This document shows positions 11,491 through 50,253 of a stretch of DNA of 64,000 nt, piece after piece; the first letter of the stretch is position 1; every line of letters begins with the position of its first letter. The notes beneath the pieces are model-generated. The model made no database searches and was not told the DNA's origin. It saw only the letters and a list, made by a program, of their open reading frames with translations. The DNA is taken from the NCBI RefSeq assembly GCF_024298765.1, contig NZ_CP101210.1. One strand, written 5' to 3'. A program made the translations under genes and the position numbers. Source of the DNA: Escherichia coli. Lineage in GTDB: Bacteria > Pseudomonadota > Gammaproteobacteria > Enterobacterales > Enterobacteriaceae.

Positions 11491-11731
11491 TGTAAAGCAT
11501 CCACAATAGAAGAAGGATGCCGCAGGTTTCATCAATATTACGCGATGATGAGAACCAGATGCGACGTTAGCCGGCAGGTCTTCGGGCTTGGAGGGGTATC
11601 TAAGATACTAAGAGATGATGACTTCCCACCGGATGGCAGTGTCCGCATAACGCAATCATCGCACCTTTCCTTACCGCTGCGCGTCAGCTCCAGATTCGCA
11701 CTGGATTCCCTATTAACTCACAGGACCGGCA
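11491..11731 (-). ncRNA. Adenosylcobalamin riboswitch (btuB 5' leader)
   Basis: Minus-strand sequence GCCGGTCCTGTGAGTTAATAGGGAATCCAGTGCGAATCTGGAGCTGACGCGCAGCGGTAAGGAAAGGTGCGATGATTGCGTTATGCGGACACTGCCATCCGGTGGGAAGTCATC... matches the well-studied btuB leader. The 5' end is approximate. Confidence 0.85.
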
Positions 11732-11858
11732 AGTGGATGCTACAGGTTGTAACAAGTTACTGTCCAGACGTAGCTCACAAATAGGAATTCATCAAGATCT
11801 GGACATCTGATGAGCAATCCCTACAATCGCCGCGTACTTTAATTTTTCAGGATACATC

Positions 11859-16735: not shown

Positions 16736-16848
16736 GAAACGGAGCGGCACCTCTTTTAACCCTTGAAGTCACTGCCCGTTTCGAGAGTTTCTCAACTCGA
16801 ATAACTAAAGCCAACGTGAACTTTTGCGGATCTCCAGGATCCGCTTTT
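16736..16848 (+). ncRNA. oxyS: OxyS small regulatory RNA
   Basis: GAAACGGAGCGGCACCTCTTTTAACCCTTGAAGTCACTGCCCGTTTCGAGAGTTTCTCAACTCGAATAACTAAAGCCAACGTGAACTTTTGCGGATCTCCAGGATCCGCTTTTTTTT matches OxyS, including the terminal hairpin GCGGATC-TCCAG-GATCCGC and U-run. Confidence 0.9.
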
Positions 16849-16891
16849 TTTTATTCTACAGGCCCACAGCAAGAGAGCCTGATAGTAACGG

Positions 16892-18175
16892 TTACTCAAT
16901 CCGATCTTTGACAATAAAGAAGTAACACAGCGCCCCGGTGAACGTCACACAGGCCGCGATAACCAGCGCCAGATTAAACGAGTGTGTGGTATCCACGACC
17001 CAACCGGTTACGATCGGAGCAAAGGAAGCAAAAACAAAACTGCCAAAGTTTTGAATCCCGGCGATGGAAGCCACTTTTGTTTCTGACACCATCACCTGCA
17101 CCAGCCCCCATGCAGATGTTCCCGCGAAATGCACGCAGAACAGCGCCATTGAGATAAACGCTACCGCCTGGGCTGGCGAGGAAGATTGCACGACCAGCAA
17201 CGTGCCTAATGCCGACATCATCAAACCGCAGACAATCGCCGTTTTACGCGTCTTCGCCAGGTCATAGCCTTTTTTCGCCAGCCGATCGACAACAATACCG
17301 TTAACCCACATCCCGACCGCCGCCGCGAGGAAAGGAATTGCCGCCACCCAACCGGTTTTCGCCAGACTGAAACCTTGTTCGGCCTGCAAATAACCGGGTA
17401 ACCACGCGATGTAGAGCCAACCGGTATAATTGACGCCAGAGAAACCTAAAATCATCCCCCAGGTTGTCCGATGCTTAAACAGCGCCAGCCACTCGCTAAA
17501 TTGTAACTGTGGACGCGGTTTAACCGGCGCGGAGAGATATGTCCGTTCTTCCTCGGTCAGGACAAACTGCGCCCGGTTGCGATACCACGCGTACCAACAG
17601 ATCCCAACCAGAATCCCTGCTACGCCGATGATGACAAACATCGTCCGCCAGCCCCATGCCAGTTGCATCAATACAAGAGCAGGAGGCGCGATAGCCTGAC
17701 CGATAACGGTAGATGAGTTAAAAATCCCCAGCGCCGTGCCGCGTTCTTTTTGCGCATACCAGTCGGTGATCGACTTTACTCCCGCAGGCATAAATGGCGC
17801 TTCGCCAATACCCAGACCGATACGCATTAAAATAAAGTGGCTAAAAGAATTAACCATTCCTGTTAATGCCTGCATTAATGACCAGAATATTAAGCCTGCG
17901 CCTAACACTATTCGTGGGCCAAAGCGGTCTAGCAAAATACCGGAAGGAAGTTGTGAAAAACCATAAGACAGAGAAAATGCAGAAAGCAAAACACCAAACT
18001 CGGTAGCGGATAATCCTAACTCGCCACGAATTGCTTCACCTGCCACGCTCAATGACGAACGGTCGAGAAAATTAACGATCCCCGCCATAAATAATAAAAC
18101 CAGGGTCACTGTCTGAATACGACGAATCCGTTGCGGTTTATTACCCGCAACACTGGTTGACACATCAACGTCCAT
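16892..18175 (-). CDS. MFS transporter, anion:cation symporter-like (hexuronate/aldonate/sugar-acid type), 427 aa; accessory relative to K-12
   Basis: 12-TM-type hydrophobic ORF with MFS signature region (GILLDRFGPRIVLGAGLIFWSL...RIGLGIGEAPFMPAG); resembles GudP/DgoT/ExuT-type sugar-acid permeases. Confidence 0.8.
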   Translation of the reverse strand: MDVDVSTSVAGNKPQRIRRIQTVTLVLLFMAGIVNFLDRSSLSVAGEAIRGELGLSATEFGVLLSAFSLSYGFSQLPSGILLDRFGPRIVLGAGLIFWSLMQALTGMVNSFSHFILMRIGLGIGEAPFMPAGVKSITDWYAQKERGTALGIFNSSTVIGQAIAPPALVLMQLAWGWRTMFVIIGVAGILVGICWYAWYRNRAQFVLTEEERTYLSAPVKPRPQLQFSEWLALFKHRTTWGMILGFSGVNYTGWLYIAWLPGYLQAEQGFSLAKTGWVAAIPFLAAAVGMWVNGIVVDRLAKKGYDLAKTRKTAIVCGLMMSALGTLLVVQSSSPAQAVAFISMALFCVHFAGTSAWGLVQVMVSETKVASIAGIQNFGSFVFASFAPIVTGWVVDTTHSFNLALVIAACVTFTGALCYFFIVKDRIE

Positions 18176-18241
18176 TTTTAGCTCCTTGAGCGGAATTAAT
18201 CGATTTGATGAATATTCAGAAAATAATTAAGCGAACCGCTA

Positions 18242-19456
18242 TTACCAGTTCCACAATGTGCCATCTTCCAGTCGTGCGACGGGGAGATACGCCGGGTCAT
18301 ACGGATATTTCGCCGCCAGTTTCTCATCGAAAGAAATACCCAGCCCCGGTTCATCGCCTGGGTGCATATAACCTTCATCGAAGCGCCAGCTATGCGGGAA
18401 GACTTCAAGCATTTGTTCGGAATAGCCCATGTACTCCTGAACGCCAAAGTTTGGCACCCAGAGGTCAAAATGCAGCGCCGCCGCATGGCAAACAGGCGAT
18501 AAATCTGAAGGGCCATGCGAACCGGTACGTACCTGATAAAGCGATGCAAAATCGGCAATCCGTCGCATCCCGGTAATGCCGCCTGCATGGGTAATCGTCG
18601 TGCGAATATAGTCAATCAGCTGCTCTTCGATTAACTGCTTGCAGTCCCAGATACTGTTAAACACTTCACCGACCGCAATCGGCGTCACGGTATGCTGACG
18701 AATCAGACGAAAACATTCCTGATTCTCGGCAGGCGTCGGATCTTCCATCCAGAACAGGCGGTAATCTTCAATGCTCTTCCCAAAGCGCGCCGCTTCGATG
18801 GGGGTCAGGCGATGGTGCATGTCATGCAACAGATGTTCGTTAAAACCGAACTTATTACGCACCGCTTCAAATAACTTCGGCGTAAAATCGAGATACTTTT
18901 CTGAAGACCACAACTGCTCTTCTGGCCACAGGCCTTTGGTTGCTGGTTCATACGCCAGTCCTTTGCCCTTCGCCAGACCATAGGTGGTTTGCATACCCGG
19001 TACACCACACTGCACACGAATCGCCTTAAAGCCCATCTGCTGGTGCTTTGCATAGTCTTCAAGGACTTCATCAATCGTACGCCCGGTGGTGTGGCAATAA
19101 ACCATAACGCCTTCACGAGAAGCACCACCAAGCAGTTGATACAATGGCATATTTGCCGCTTTTGCTTTGATATCCCACAACGCCATATCAATGGCAGAAA
19201 TGGCTGACATCGTGACGGGGCCACGTCGCCAGTAAGCACCTTTATAAAAGAATTGCCAGATATCTTCGATACGGCTGGCATCGCGGCCAATTAGTTGTGG
19301 ACAAAGATGATCTTTCAGATAAGAAGCGACCGACAATTCGCGACCATTTAACGTGGCATCTCCTAATCCACAAAGTCCGCTTGCAGTGGTTATTTTAAGC
19401 GTAACGAAATTACGCCCTGGGCAAGTAACAAAAACATCTGCAGCAATAATTTTCAT
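18242..19456 (-). CDS. Enolase-superfamily dehydratase, ManD/RspA-like (about 404 aa); accessory relative to K-12
   Basis: ORF 18242..19516; start set at ATG 19454-19456 ([24 protein letters not shown]...) with an AGGAG RBS about 7 nt upstream. TIM-barrel region resembles mandelate racemase / D-mannonate dehydratase family proteins such as E. coli RspA. Confidence 0.8.
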
Positions 19457-19860
19457 TATTGCAATCTCCTGTGTTGTAAATAGACGTTTCAAACTTAATT
19501 TTGCGCCTACTACCATACAAGAGAGAAAGAGCGATTATTCAACCATGATCACATTAAAAATAAAAATTTCTACCGAGGAGAAAAAACACCCTCAAAAACC
19601 ACCTGAATAATTAGCTATCATCGTTAAAACAACACGTTAAATAATCACATAACAAACTCCATTAATCATTAAAAATGAACACAGCAATAGAAATGAATTA
19701 TATTCAATTAATTAAAGTATGTATTGGCTGATGTATTGAAAATATAATTTTTATGGGGAGAGTGAAGGTAAAGAAGACGCAAGAATAAAAAGGAATGTGA
19801 CAAATAATGGTTCTGGTTGGGCGTTAAATTTAAGGTCACCAGAATACTGACAAATTTCTG

Positions 19861-19941
19861 CCTGATGCGGCGTAAACGCCTTATCCGCCTACGAAGTGTC
19901 GCACTTTGTAGGCGTGGTAAGCTCCCCATTTTCAGGGGAGC
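19861..19941. repeat. REP-like palindromic element plus a perfect hairpin just downstream of argH
   Basis: GCCTGATGCGGCGTAAACGCCTTATCCGCCTAC is REP-like; GCTCCCC-ATTTTCA-GGGGAGC at 19921-19941 is a perfect 7-bp inverted repeat. Confidence 0.6.
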
Positions 19942-19953
19942 AATATAAACAAA

Positions 19954-21327
19954 CTACTCTAACCGAGCTTGCGCAAAAGCAATCGCCTGCGCCACCTGCT
20001 GCGGTGAGACGCCGCCTTTTGCAGCACGCTTGTCGAGGCACGATTGCAGCGACAGAATCGGATAGACATCTTCGCCAATCACCTGGCTGAATTTCTGCAA
20101 CTCACTGAGCGGCAGATCTTCCAACGCTTTGCCCTGACGAATGGCTTCCACCACAGCTTCACCCACAATATGGTGCGCCTCGCGGAACGGTACGCCTTTC
20201 GCCACCAGATAATCCGCCAGTTCAGTAGCGTTGGCGTAACCCTGCTGCGCCGCTTCCTGGCAACGCGGACGTTTCACCTGAATGCCGTCCAGCACCAGCG
20301 CCGCCATATGCAGGCAGTCCAGCCAGGTATCGAGCGCGTCGAACAGACCTTCTTTGTCTTCCTGCATATCTTTGTTGTAAGCCAGCGGCAAACCTTTCAG
20401 CGTCATCATCATGCCGGTTAACGCCCCCTGCACCCGACCGCATTTACCGCGAATCAGCTCCAGCGCATCCGGGTTTTTCTTCTGCGGCATTAATGATGAA
20501 CCGGAAGTCACACGGTCAGAAAGCTCCACAAACCCCGCTTCGCCGGTGTTAAAGAAAATCAGATCTTCAGCAAAACGCGACAGATGCACCATGCCGATAG
20601 CGGCAGCAGAAAGCAGTTCCAACACATGGTCACGGTCAGAAACGCTGTCGAGACTGTTACGGGTCGCCGAAGCAAAGCCCAGCCAGCCTGCTAACTGTTC
20701 ACGGTCGATTTCATAGGCCGTTCCTGCCAGTGCGCCACAGCCTAGCGGGCTGACATCCAGACGCTTAAGCGCGTCCTGCAAACGGCTTTCATCACGCGCC
20801 AGCATCTCAACGTAGGCCAGGCACCAGTGAGCGAACGTCACCGGCTGGGCGCGTTGCAGGTGAGTGTAACCCGGCATCACCGCGTCCTGATTGTTCTGCG
20901 CGGTCTCGACCAGAGCGGATTGTAACTGCCGGTTAGCCGTCAGCAACTCGCTAACGGTATCTTTGCACCACAGTTTCAGGTCAGTTGCTACCTGATCATT
21001 ACGGCTACGCCCGGTATGCAGTTTTTTGCCTAACTGACCCACTTTGTCGATCAGTTTGCCTTCCACCCAGCTATGGATATCTTCGGCGTCGCTTTCAAGG
21101 ATTTGTTGTGGCCTGGCGCGAACATCTTCCAGCAGCACGTTCAGCGCCTCTTCCAGTTGCGCCTGCTCTTCTGCGGTTAACACGCCGACCGTTACCAGGG
21201 CTTTGGACCAGGCCACAGAGCCAACAATATCCTGCTCCGCCAGACGGTAATCAAAGCGCAGTGAGTCGTTGAATTGTTTGAACCGTTGATCTGCTGCCTG
21301 GGTAAAACGCCCGCCCCAAAGTGCCAT
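19954..21327 (-). CDS. argH: Argininosuccinate lyase (457 aa)
   Basis: Full-length [37 protein letters not shown]...; fumarate-lyase signature [12 protein letters not shown]. Confidence 0.95.
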
Positions 21328-47345: not shown

Positions 47346-48470
47346 ATGTCGACTCTGTTTACGATTAATGCCTGTAAAACGTTCGGTTGCCGAAATTTGG
47401 GATTGGCCTCATCGGAAGATTACAGTTGGCCAGACTATAAACTGGGTTATCCGGCACTGCACTGTCGGGCATGTGGCAGTTACCCGCCGTTGTTTGACGA
47501 GCAACAATTTCGTGACTGGTTGTCAGTTCACTTATCTACGTGGGCCTCGGAGAAGGGTCATTTCTGCCCGGTATGTTATGGCACAGACATGATTTGTTAT
47601 GGTCACAATCCACAGGGTTCGCAACGCATTCAATGCCGTAACTGCAAAAAAGTCTGGACGCCTAAACAGTATCAGAAAGAAATTACGCATCCCCAGGCCA
47701 TTGAAACCGTTCAACTGTTCATACCCTTTCAAGGGGCCAGCGCAGTACAAAAACTGTATGTTTTAGTCAGTCTTGACGCCACTCGTGGCAACATTCTTCA
47801 TCTCTCCACGAATTATACGCAACATCAGACAGGAGACAGTCTGCGGTACAGTTACAAGGGCAACACAGAACCAACTATGCACCATCGCGATATCGTGCAG
47901 AAGGTAGATATGCGTGAAGCGCAATTCTTGCGCCGGAGCCAGTTCGATGAAATTCAGTATGGCAGTGCTGTACTCAAGCGCAACGGTAAGGGAGCCATAC
48001 TACGCCCGGTTATCACGGCACACGGGCATTTCAGAATACTGAAAATCCGCTATCCAGATGTCAAAACGCATATTATTTCACACGAATGTTTTCTAAGAGG
48101 CGCAATTATTACAGCCTGGGCAGATCAGTTCCGCCAACAACAAGGTGAACTTTGGTTCGTAGAAGAAGAAATCAGTGACAGTAACGCTGATACGCCCTGG
48201 CATTTTAAGGGAACGACATACCATGGTTGGTGGCAAAATCAGTGGCAGCGCTGGGAGCAGGGGAATAACTGCAAGATGGTCTGCCTACTCACGGGAGCCA
48301 GCTTAGAAAGGGGCGCAAATGTTTCTCTGGCAACCAGTCGTTGTTTTATCACATGGCTGACAGACCAACACGACTTTACCCAAAGCGCGTTATTATCCGC
48401 AGGTCGCGTAACGCAAATGCTGACCTCACTGGCGTTAAAATACAATGAATCGCTCACTCCATCTTGTTAG
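47346..48470 (+). CDS. Cysteine-rich hypothetical protein with two N-terminal zinc ribbons (374 aa), the second InsA/IS1-like; function unknown
   Basis: CxxxxC...CxxC (C10, C15, C40, C43) and CPVC-x19-QRIQCRNCKKVW (C74, C77, C97, C100). The second fits the IS1 InsA pattern CPxC...QRYxCxxCRKxW. No recognisable domain in the C-terminal 260 aa. Divergent from paralog 1. Confidence 0.6.
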   Translation: MSTLFTINACKTFGCRNLGLASSEDYSWPDYKLGYPALHCRACGSYPPLFDEQQFRDWLSVHLSTWASEKGHFCPVCYGTDMICYGHNPQGSQRIQCRNCKKVWTPKQYQKEITHPQAIETVQLFIPFQGASAVQKLYVLVSLDATRGNILHLSTNYTQHQTGDSLRYSYKGNTEPTMHHRDIVQKVDMREAQFLRRSQFDEIQYGSAVLKRNGKGAILRPVITAHGHFRILKIRYPDVKTHIISHECFLRGAIITAWADQFRQQQGELWFVEEEISDSNADTPWHFKGTTYHGWWQNQWQRWEQGNNCKMVCLLTGASLERGANVSLATSRCFITWLTDQHDFTQSALLSAGRVTQMLTSLALKYNESLTPSC

Positions 48471-48699
48471 TCAATACACTCGACAAACGACCATAAATTA
48501 AGAGAGATCACTACCTTTCATTTAATTAAATATATAAATGTATGACCGTGAAATATAATCATGGTCAATGTTTAATTAATAACATTATTTGTTACTAAGA
48601 TCACATAATACTTTTCTGAACTATGCTTACATAAAATAAGACACGATGTGCCTTTTATTTAAATAATTCAACAAATGTAACACACCCTATCCAGGAGGG

Positions 48700-50253
48700 A
48701 TGATGAAAACTGTATTTACAACATTATCAGTCATATTCGGCGTGATATTTTCTCACAGTGTTCTAGCTCAGGACGTTACTATTTATTATACGAATGACAT
48801 TCACGCACATGTCAATCCGGCAAAAATCCTCGCTGTTGATAAGAACAGACTTATAGGTGGTATGGCTAATATTGCAGGCATCGTTAATGAAGCGAAGAAA
48901 AAAAGCAAAGATGTGTTTTTCTTTGATGCAGGCGACTATTTTACCGGGCCGTATATCAGCACCCTGACCAAAGGTGAAGCTATTATTGATATCATGAACA
49001 CTATGCCCTTTGATGCGGTGTCTGTTGGTAATCACGAGTTCGATCACGGTGTGCCCAATATGGTGTCTCAGTTATCAAAAGCAAAATTTCCCATTCTGCT
49101 GGGAAATATCTACTACACCGATACGAATAAACCAGTTTGGGATCATCCGTGGACCATTATCGAAAAAGATGGTTTAAAGATTGGTGTGATTGGATTGCAT
49201 GGCGCATTCGCTTTCTATGATACAGTCGCGGCAAAAGCACGTGAAGGCGTAGAAGCCAGAGACGAAATTAAATATTTAAATAAAGCACTTGCAGAATTAA
49301 AAGGCAAAGTCGACATTACCGTTTTGCTAATTCACGAAGGTGTCCCGGCGCGTCAATCAAGCTTTGGTAGTAAAGATGTGGAGCGGCTACTACAGGCAGA
49401 TATTGAGACAGCTAAAAAAGTGAATGGTGTTGATGTCTTAATTACCGGTCACGCACATGTCGGAACACCGCAACCAATAAAAGTTAATAACACATTAATT
49501 GTATCTACCGATGCATACGGCACCAACATCGGAAAACTTGTGCTTGATTACAATCCGAAAACGAAGAAAATTGATAGTTATAATGGTGAGTTAATCACCA
49601 TCTTTGCAGATCAATTTAAACCTGACACCATCGTTCAAAATACTATTGATAAATGGAGTGCAAAGCTTAACAAAATAACACAGGAAGTTGTCGGCCATTC
49701 TCCCGTAGTTTTAACACGTGAGTATGGTAGTTCCTCTTCTACCGGCAACCTTATTCTTGATGCAATGATGGAAAAAACACCTGATGCCGTTGCCGGATTT
49801 CAAAATAGCGGTGGGATTCGAGCTGATTTTCCTAAAGGCGATATCACACTGGGAGATGTTATTAGCACATTCCCCTTTAATAATGACCTCATCGAGATGG
49901 ATTTGACGGGCCGCGATCTCAAATCATTGATGACGCATGCAACCAATCTAACTAACGGTGTGTTACAAGTTTCTAAAAGTGTTGCGGTTGTCTATGACAG
50001 CAAAAAACCCCTCAACCAACGGTTAATCTCTTTCACCATTAACGGCAAACCTGTGGAAGATAATCAAACATATCGTATTGCCACGCACTCCTTTTGTGCC
50101 AGTGGTGGTGACGGTTTTGAAGCATTTTTGAATGGAAAAAATGTGAAGACGATACCGGGAACAACCTCGGCGGAATCTATCATCGATTATTTCAAAAATC
50201 ATAAACCTGTCACCCCAGACTTAACTAAACGAGTCATGGACGTCGCCAAATAA
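48700..50253 (+). CDS. Secreted metallophosphatase / 5'-nucleotidase, UshA-like (paralog 2, 517 aa); accessory
   Basis: AGGAGG RBS at 48693-48698; signal peptide MMKTVFTTLSVIFGVIFSHSVLA|QD; same motif set ([27 protein letters not shown]). The most divergent of the three paralogs, with visibly AT-richer codon usage. Confidence 0.85.
   Translation: MMKTVFTTLSVIFGVIFSHSVLAQDVTIYYTNDIHAHVNPAKILAVDKNRLIGGMANIAGIVNEAKKKSKDVFFFDAGDYFTGPYISTLTKGEAIIDIMNTMPFDAVSVGNHEFDHGVPNMVSQLSKAKFPILLGNIYYTDTNKPVWDHPWTIIEKDGLKIGVIGLHGAFAFYDTVAAKAREGVEARDEIKYLNKALAELKGKVDITVLLIHEGVPARQSSFGSKDVERLLQADIETAKKVNGVDVLITGHAHVGTPQPIKVNNTLIVSTDAYGTNIGKLVLDYNPKTKKIDSYNGELITIFADQFKPDTIVQNTIDKWSAKLNKITQEVVGHSPVVLTREYGSSSSTGNLILDAMMEKTPDAVAGFQNSGGIRADFPKGDITLGDVISTFPFNNDLIEMDLTGRDLKSLMTHATNLTNGVLQVSKSVAVVYDSKKPLNQRLISFTINGKPVEDNQTYRIATHSFCASGGDGFEAFLNGKNVKTIPGTTSAESIIDYFKNHKPVTPDLTKRVMDVAK

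Follow-up and report, generated by a model that had tools for sequence, protein, structure and literature searches.

The question raised by this locus is what an unusually long, AT-rich stretch of DNA is doing between argH and a dehydratase gene lying in the same orientation, and whether it represents, as the original prediction proposed, a long leader of that gene embedded in an H-NS-type silenced region. In the window (that is, the whole 64,000-nt stretch of Escherichia coli DNA analyzed, from contig NZ_CP101210.1), the RefSeq annotation places argH at 19954-21327 on the minus strand, as it does argC and argB, and manD, coding for a "D-mannonate dehydratase ManD", at 18242-19456 on the same strand. 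The non-coding gap of about 500 bp that had been claimed between the two genes does exist: it runs from the stop codon of argH (19956-19954) to the ATG of manD (19456-19454) and measures exactly 497 bp (19457-19953). Beyond manD lie an MFS transporter gene (16892-18175, minus strand), the small RNA OxyS (16736-16845, plus strand; Rfam, 139.5 bits) and, further on, oxyR. A cobalamin riboswitch is also present in the window (11556-11745, minus strand, 87.8 bits). The gap is 100% identical to that of E. coli strain 104, in which argH, manD, the MFS transporter gene and oxyR are all annotated, and it was found in 1872 of the 5426 complete E. coli genomes (1713 times over its full length); all of these copies are chromosomal, and none is annotated. 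We found no paper on the argH-manD locus in the literature.

The comparison with K-12 revealed a different organization of this region. In that strain argH and oxyS are separated by a spacer of 54 bp, which contains a canonical terminator unrelated to the hairpin present in the window, and the 3.1-kb module formed by manD and the MFS gene is absent; approximately one third of the complete E. coli genomes carry it. Similarity between the window and K-12 ends directly after the argH stop codon on one side and directly after the oxyS terminator on the other; divergence begins right at these two points, so that a 3.1-kb segment (approximately 16849-19953) replaces the K-12 spacer. The same argH-manD-MFS arrangement occurs in E. 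whittamii. At the protein level, ManD shares 91-94% identity with proteins of many Enterobacterales, most of which are RspA orthologues (92% in the case of RspA of the K-12 type), and manD is, in this sense, a 92%-identical paralogue of rspA. Signs of decay were observed in some lineages, manD being frameshifted in strain JNEC-KY179 and the MFS gene being annotated as shorter in strain Ecol_881.

The relationship with rspA extends to the DNA upstream of the gene, as the last 110 bp or so before manD align with the K-12 rspA promoter. The transcription start of the latter has been mapped 30 bp before the ATG, and RspR (YdfH) protects 31 bp centred on the palindrome ATACnnGTAT, overlapping the promoter, and represses rspA by overlap with RNA polymerase (Shimada et al., PMC8249747). 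In nearly all of the 80 Enterobacterales rspA/manD loci compared, belonging to many genera, the motif CTTGTATGGTAGT (the right half of the published RspR box, which overlaps the -35) is invariant and lies 52-86 nt before the ATG, with a TGTGA 34-35 nt further upstream. The window possesses this same architecture, with TGTGATC located 34 nt upstream of CTTGTATGGTAGT and both elements at the conserved spacing from the ATG of a ManD/RspA gene, and the arrangement is invariant in eight aligned loci. More precisely, and reading the minus strand, the TGTGATC element, which resembles a CRP half-site, belongs to the 16-mer TGTGATCATGGTTGAA (19538-19553), whose centre falls some 60 bp before the predicted start; it is followed by the RspR-box-like motif TCTCTTGTATGGTAGTA (19508-19524), containing the predicted -35 TTGTAT (19515-19520), and then, after a spacer of 17 nt, by the predicted -10 TAAGTT (19492-19497). 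By homology to the K-12 rspA start, transcription of manD would begin at about 19485-19487, that is, approximately 30 nt before the ATG. The Shine-Dalgarno sequence AGGAGA (19465-19470) and the start codon (19454-19456), which together occupy 19454-19470, follow the RefSeq annotation and are identical in sequence in strain 104.

The two promoters are, however, far from identical. Where the palindrome ATACnnGTAT would be expected the window has TCTCTTGTAT, in which the left half ATAC reads TCTC; this left half is replaced in all the Escherichia manD alleles, the right half and the adjacent GGTAGT being intact, and because of its loss the control of manD by RspR is uncertain. The second half-site of the TGTGA element, whose centre falls at about -60, reads TTGAA and matches TCACA at only two of five positions, and the papers on rspA that we consulted gave no evidence for CRP. 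Unlike K-12 rspA, manD has TAAGTT instead of TAGATT as its -10, an unrelated 5' UTR with a stronger ribosome-binding site (AGGAGA), about 390 bp of Escherichia-specific DNA upstream in place of the ynfA terminator, and an MFS transporter gene rather than rspB as its downstream partner. The predicted manD promoter, with its weak -10, ranked only ninth in a simple sigma-70 PWM scan of the gap, all of whose candidates were weak; a consensus promoter scan did not call it, and returned a single weak site on the plus strand, fewer than expected from shuffled sequences. In rspA loci, the stretch of about 100 bp that separates the ynfA terminator from the ATG accommodates the whole promoter, which suggests that the remaining 390 bp or so of the gap are not needed for basic promoter function. 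With transcription beginning some 30 nt ahead of the ATG, the greater part of the 497 bp would lie upstream of the promoter. Hence, the gap is probably not a long leader, and the term chosen in the original prediction is not supported, since only the last 110 bp or so are homologous to a mapped promoter, that of K-12 rspA (PMC8249747).

What, then, is the rest of the gap? Its upstream 390 bp or so are common only to E. coli and E. whittamii, and no homologue exists upstream of rspA/manD in other genera. We analyzed the divergence along an alignment of seven diverse E. coli alleles, the E. whittamii allele and two alleles from genomes with a larger island at this site ("big-island" alleles), using the third codon positions of argH and manD as the neutral yardstick (0.04-0.065 within E. 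coli, 0.17-0.18 to E. whittamii). The proximal 110 bp (19457-19566) are constrained, with a divergence to E. whittamii of 0.045; moving toward argH, the values are 0.23 at 19567-19622, 0.026 at 19623-19660 (hereinafter block B), 0.18 at 19661-19760, 0.12 at 19761-19860 and 0.22 in the REP element (19861-19915). The AT-rich, Escherichia-only spacer (19661-19859) shows pairwise values of 0.04-0.06 within E. coli and of 0.12-0.18 to E. whittamii, so that about 200 bp evolve at approximately the synonymous rate and can be regarded as filler.

The 38-bp block B, which in the manD sense reads GGAGTTTGTTATGTGATTATTTAACGTGTTGTTTTAAC, is near-invariant between flanks that have diverged by 20-45%. Over the 30 positions from 19624 to 19653 there is no difference either to E. 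whittamii or to the big-island variant (5-7/30 and 14/30 in the flanking windows), and 35 of the 38 columns of the block are invariant in the 10 sequences, a density matched by none of 20,000 column shuffles. The possibility that the block is a repeat or the end of a mobile element was discarded: it is single-copy in E. coli, in a constant context, it does not occur on plasmids, apart from two mislabelled chromosomes, and all of its 19 exact metagenome matches correspond to the same locus. Five of its six frames contain stop codons, it holds no conserved ORF, and Rfam returned no match to it. A by-eye check against the consensuses of CRP, IHF, Fis, ArgR, OxyR, NagC, KdgR, GlpR, DeoR, MarA, boxA and dif gave nothing convincing either. 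Our best guess is that block B is an operator, or protein-binding site, for some further factor. A wider proposal, doubtful and offered only tentatively, is that it constitutes an Escherichia-specific functional element coupling manD-MFS to a signal other than RspR, whether as an operator, as the heart of a second promoter or as the place where a divergent transcript begins. On this proposal, block B and the conditional sequestration of the manD ribosome-binding site would together make up a small module for insulation and control, assembled at the time when the genes were captured beside oxyS.

At the argH side of the gap, the perfect hairpin that had been claimed at 19921-19941 was confirmed as a perfect 7-bp stem, located 12 nt past the argH stop codon. 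On the minus strand it reads GCUCCCC-UGAAAAU-GGGGAGC (GCTCCCC-ATTTTCA-GGGGAGC on the plus strand), with six G-C pairs and one A-U pair; it is kept in E. whittamii, and in JNEC-KY179 it carries two stem-breaking changes. Its stem is a good one, but it does not qualify as an intrinsic terminator, as it is followed by UUACCACG, with no U tract, and the terminator scan did not call it; it is likely to act as a stabilizer of the argH mRNA 3' end or as a weak terminator. The adjacent REP-like element, originally placed at 19861-19900, turned out to be a genuine, multi-copy REP occupying 19860-19892, to which a palindromic extension (19886-19914) is attached. It reads GCCTGATGCGGCGTAAACGCCTTATCCGCCTAC, which folds as a hairpin and belongs to the imperfect palindromes of about 35 bp of the type GCC(G/T)GATGCG...CTTATC(C/A)GGCCTAC; it lacks the GG of GGCCTAC, and a search with the strict consensus allowing up to three mismatches overlooked it. 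The segment 19855-19921 occurs at no fewer than 6-55 places per genome (median 36, among the matches listed) in 5425 of the 5426 complete E. coli genomes, and the REP-derived family naRNA4 reaches 27.6 bits here, below its gathering score of 59.5.

Like the REP/BIME elements found at the 3' ends of operons, the REP of the gap belongs to the same high-copy sequence family of E. coli and lies just past a stop codon. It differs from them in form, since one REP carrying a short palindromic extension takes the place of a full BIME, and in having been partly deleted in one lineage (Ecol_881) and duplicated, by insertion of a second REP, in E. whittamii, from which it follows that its exact form is not constrained. 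Given that the hairpin has no U tract and was not called, and that the REP varies among lineages, neither of them is a convincing stand-alone terminator. Insulation by REP and hairpin is plausible, although weak in the form in which it was first stated, and insulation of manD from argH read-through is likewise plausible. Other parts of the gap could contribute to insulation, namely a tract of the argH-sense strand that is rich in C and poor in G (19700-19819; 19-22 C vs 3-4 G per 80 nt), which, judging from this composition, could be rut-like and offer a loading site to Rho, a small hairpin with a T-rich run at 19550-19596, and a further hairpin that might sequester the manD ribosome-binding site. 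As a separate observation, the argH 3' flank exists in three unrelated versions: the canonical terminator of K-12 (L004, 4225-4278), the hairpin plus REP of the window (19916-19956) and a bidirectional hairpin shared with araD (L091, 13579-13627); each arrangement of this hotspot carries its own argH 3' end.

The two hairpins closer to manD and the invariance of block B lead to the first of the alternatives to be weighed, according to which part of the gap would be a true long 5' leader after all, with a second promoter at block B, a 5' UTR of about 180 nt and hairpins regulating translation or attenuating transcription. Within the block, TGtGATTAT (19641-19649, minus strand) fits the extended -10 format; nevertheless, the block is not one of the leading sigma-70 candidates nor among the best PWM matches, and its -35 region is not conserved. 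Downstream of it, on the minus strand, a small conserved hairpin, UUGAGGR-N9-YCCUCGG (19573-19596), precedes a T-rich run (19550-19570); it sits immediately before the manD promoter, in the position that the ynfA terminator occupies in rspA loci. Its arms are invariant and its loop varies, and a G-U pair has become A-U by a change on one side only; the terminator scan did not call the hairpin. A second potential hairpin (19465-19524, minus strand), with a predicted energy of -20.7 kcal/mol, would pair UCUCUUGU (19524-19517) with ACAGGAGA (19472-19465), and the fold z-score of the region 19440-19640 is -3.2. A structured leader was, however, rejected on the basis of RNAalifold, which predicted 60 pairs over eight alleles with no compensatory change in any of them; the pairs of the second hairpin are themselves invariant across the variants, so covariation is uninformative for or against it. 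In addition, no Rfam riboswitch or leader matched, and the rspA homologues function with a UTR of about 30 nt (PMC8249747). Taken together, these data make a long leader quite improbable. Some of the same features are loosely reminiscent of a seed followed by a terminator, since the conserved hairpin and the U-rich run come about 30 nt after block B, and might point to an unannotated small RNA or small protein encoded in the gap. Yet the 58-nt segment holding that hairpin (19605-19548) has a predicted energy of only -6 to -10 kcal/mol, the U run is not adjacent to the stem, no terminator was called inside the gap on either strand, and the Rfam scans (over 14 kb, and over the gap alone with E up to 10) returned no family at its gathering score in the gap, only the sub-threshold naRNA4 match and noise. 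As for proteins, we checked all ORFs of at least 20 codons plus three mini-ORFs across eight alleles. A 73-codon minus-strand ORF is interrupted, by a stop or a frameshift, in E. whittamii as well as in three lineages of E. coli, and shorter ORFs have lost their start codon or have accumulated mainly non-synonymous changes at the neutral rate. The exception is a 43-codon ORF on the plus strand (19817-19948), which remains open in all eight alleles even though indels of -12 and +21 nt, lengths divisible by three, have occurred in it; it crosses the REP, begins with TTG, has no ribosome-binding site and shows mostly non-synonymous changes, and it has probably stayed open by chance. The claim that no convincing ORF exists here holds, and neither a conserved small protein nor an sRNA, the finding that the original prediction had named as able to overturn it, emerged from the ORFs of the eight alleles or from Rfam; an unannotated product of either kind thus appears very improbable. 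Remnants of a decayed gene or regulator were likewise discarded, as blastn against 84 loci detected no homologue of the gap outside Escherichia.

A different alternative assigns the whole AT-rich gap to an extended silencer bound by H-NS, which would keep the horizontally acquired manD-MFS genes off while REP and hairpin insulate them from argH. The claim that the gap is very AT-rich is fully borne out: its GC content is 34.6% (29.9% at 19560-19860) against a mean of 51.2% in the 64-kb window, and the 300 nt at 19455-19754 are the lowest in GC of the entire window (28%). An AT-rich tract beside acquired genes is a feature of H-NS-silenced regions, and the gap shows one, with 28-30% GC over 300 bp vs 51% in the window. 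The nucleation-type motif of H-NS has the consensus tCG(t/a)T(a/t)AATT, and the window holds 30 near-matches to this motif. Eight of them fall within the 3.1-kb island (between 16972 and 19830); two of these eight lie inside the gap, and one, a perfect match, is located between manD and the MFS gene (18194-18203). The accessory nature of the module and the weak promoter hexamers of manD also agree with silencing. The resemblance to regions such as the proU and bgl silencers thus concerns the 70% or so of AT over about 300 bp beside an accessory operon and the clustered motif near-matches; unlike in those systems, the flanking genes have a normal G+C content and most of the AT-rich DNA is unconstrained. 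As this DNA drifts freely, any H-NS binding would act through base composition rather than through conserved sequence, and the conserved parts are better accounted for by specific factors; on the insulation side, strain Ecol_881 does without part of the REP, and the hairpin is devoid of a U tract. The composition of the gap fits silencing, and a silencer of this kind is possible, if somewhat less than probable, as the full explanation; it is compatible with the explanation that we prefer, to which it would add a layer. The oxyS side of the locus offers still another interpretation, in which the distal half of the spacer (about 19780-19860) is what decay has left of an oxyS promoter and 5' region that had been duplicated, the spacer being recombination debris left when manD-MFS was placed beside oxyS. 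Some 150 genomes with a larger island carry a decayed oxyS in direct orientation at the point where homology to the spacer of the window ends, and at the expected place the AAGGAATGTGACAAATAATGGTTC of the window shares 17 of 24 positions with AAGCATTCTGACTGATAATTGCTC, the true oxyS promoter. Against this, local alignment does no better than shuffled sequences (z = 0.3-1.0), MAFFT favours another register, and a search of the gap with the OxyS covariance model comes up empty even at E = 10. A pseudo-oxyS inside the gap of the window was accordingly rejected, and we consider the remnant unlikely. Two further stretches of very low GC were noticed in the window, at 48437-48736 (28.7%) and 51817-52116 (32%), and they may be additional acquired DNA.

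The explanation that we prefer, and that we regard as probable though by no means assured, is that the gap is an ordinary composite upstream junction of the accessory manD-MFS module and not a leader of about 500 nt. According to this model, the argH transcript would end with a G+C-rich hairpin without a U tract and then the REP, which would stabilize or attenuate it; a C-rich, G-poor tract, possibly a Rho loading site, would come next, followed by about 200 bp of AT-rich filler in which no sequence constraint is detectable and by the 38-bp block B, most likely a protein-binding site. The last 110 bp or so would form a compact promoter homologous to that of rspA, with TGTGATC about 60 bp upstream of the start, TTGTAT within a half-degenerate RspR box, the weak -10 TAAGTT, a start approximately 30 nt before the ATG and the strong ribosome-binding site AGGAGA. 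On the basis of this layout, manD is expected to be weakly expressed, activator-dependent and regulated by sugar acids, with a short 5' UTR. The limits of the gap, the nature of its REP, the pattern of conservation and the homology of the promoter are established directly by these comparisons; the start site, the identity of the bound factors and any silencing or insulation are deduced from them. As to the original prediction as a whole, its description of a non-coding, very AT-rich region with a REP and a hairpin beside an accessory module stands, and its notion of a leader is not supported.

In this promoter, the potential hairpin at 19465-19524 might have a role that does not require a leader. 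As modelled, it would hide the manD ribosome-binding site only in RNAs begun upstream of the promoter, whereas transcripts from the predicted start would leave the site free. The transposase of IS10 is protected from outside transcription by fold-back inhibition, and the manD hairpin is similar in that it spans the promoter, so that only read-through RNA could pair the upstream pyrimidine run with the ribosome-binding site. The two differ in that the predicted manD hairpin shows no covariation, and in that its 5' arm doubles as the -35/RspR-box sequence, which already explains the conservation of this arm.

A remaining question concerns the route by which the module reached its place. In those 150 or so E. 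coli genomes (e.g., WP8-S17-ESBL-08), an additional sugar-utilization island of about 9 kb lies between argH and the AT-rich spacer; it comprises (L091 4512-13578, NZ_AP022221.1) an araD-like epimerase, a DeoR/GlpR regulator, a sugar ABC transporter, an L-ribulose-5-phosphate 3-epimerase and an FGGY kinase. The decayed second oxyS is located, in WP8-S17-ESBL-08 and E400634, between the stop codon of the FGGY kinase gene and the spacer; against the Rfam OxyS model, the copy at L003 6356-6478 scores 35.5 bits (E = 4e-4) and the copy at L090 3203-3325 scores 26.8 bits. Its presence at the island junction means that in those genomes manD-MFS and the spacer are bracketed by oxyS and a pseudo-oxyS, and this suggests recombination at oxyS as the assembly route, with the oxyS 3' region being a hotspot for island capture. 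Concerning the genes themselves, the order at the rspA locus of Lelliottia is ynfA-rspA-MFS-rspB, and in several other genera an orthologous MFS gene directly precedes rspA and has a promoter motif copy to itself (window 18242-19456; L041; L024 3563-7588). Arrangements of these two kinds are a plausible, and likely, source of the manD-MFS pair captured by E. coli.

These findings leave the general understanding of gene regulation unchanged; what they add is a previously undescribed promoter paralogous to that of rspA and the conserved block B. For annotation, the manD-MFS genes beside argH can be described as a paralogue of the rspA system, with a recognizable rspA-type promoter, present in about one third of E. 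coli genomes, whose carriers include many extraintestinal pathogenic strains. Because this promoter is recognizable, the control of manD is directly testable with RspR, CRP and sugar acids (L-gulonate, D-mannonate), and no 500-nt leader need be assumed. Finally, the conservation map indicates that little of a long AT-rich gap needs a function, and it singles out one 38-bp element.
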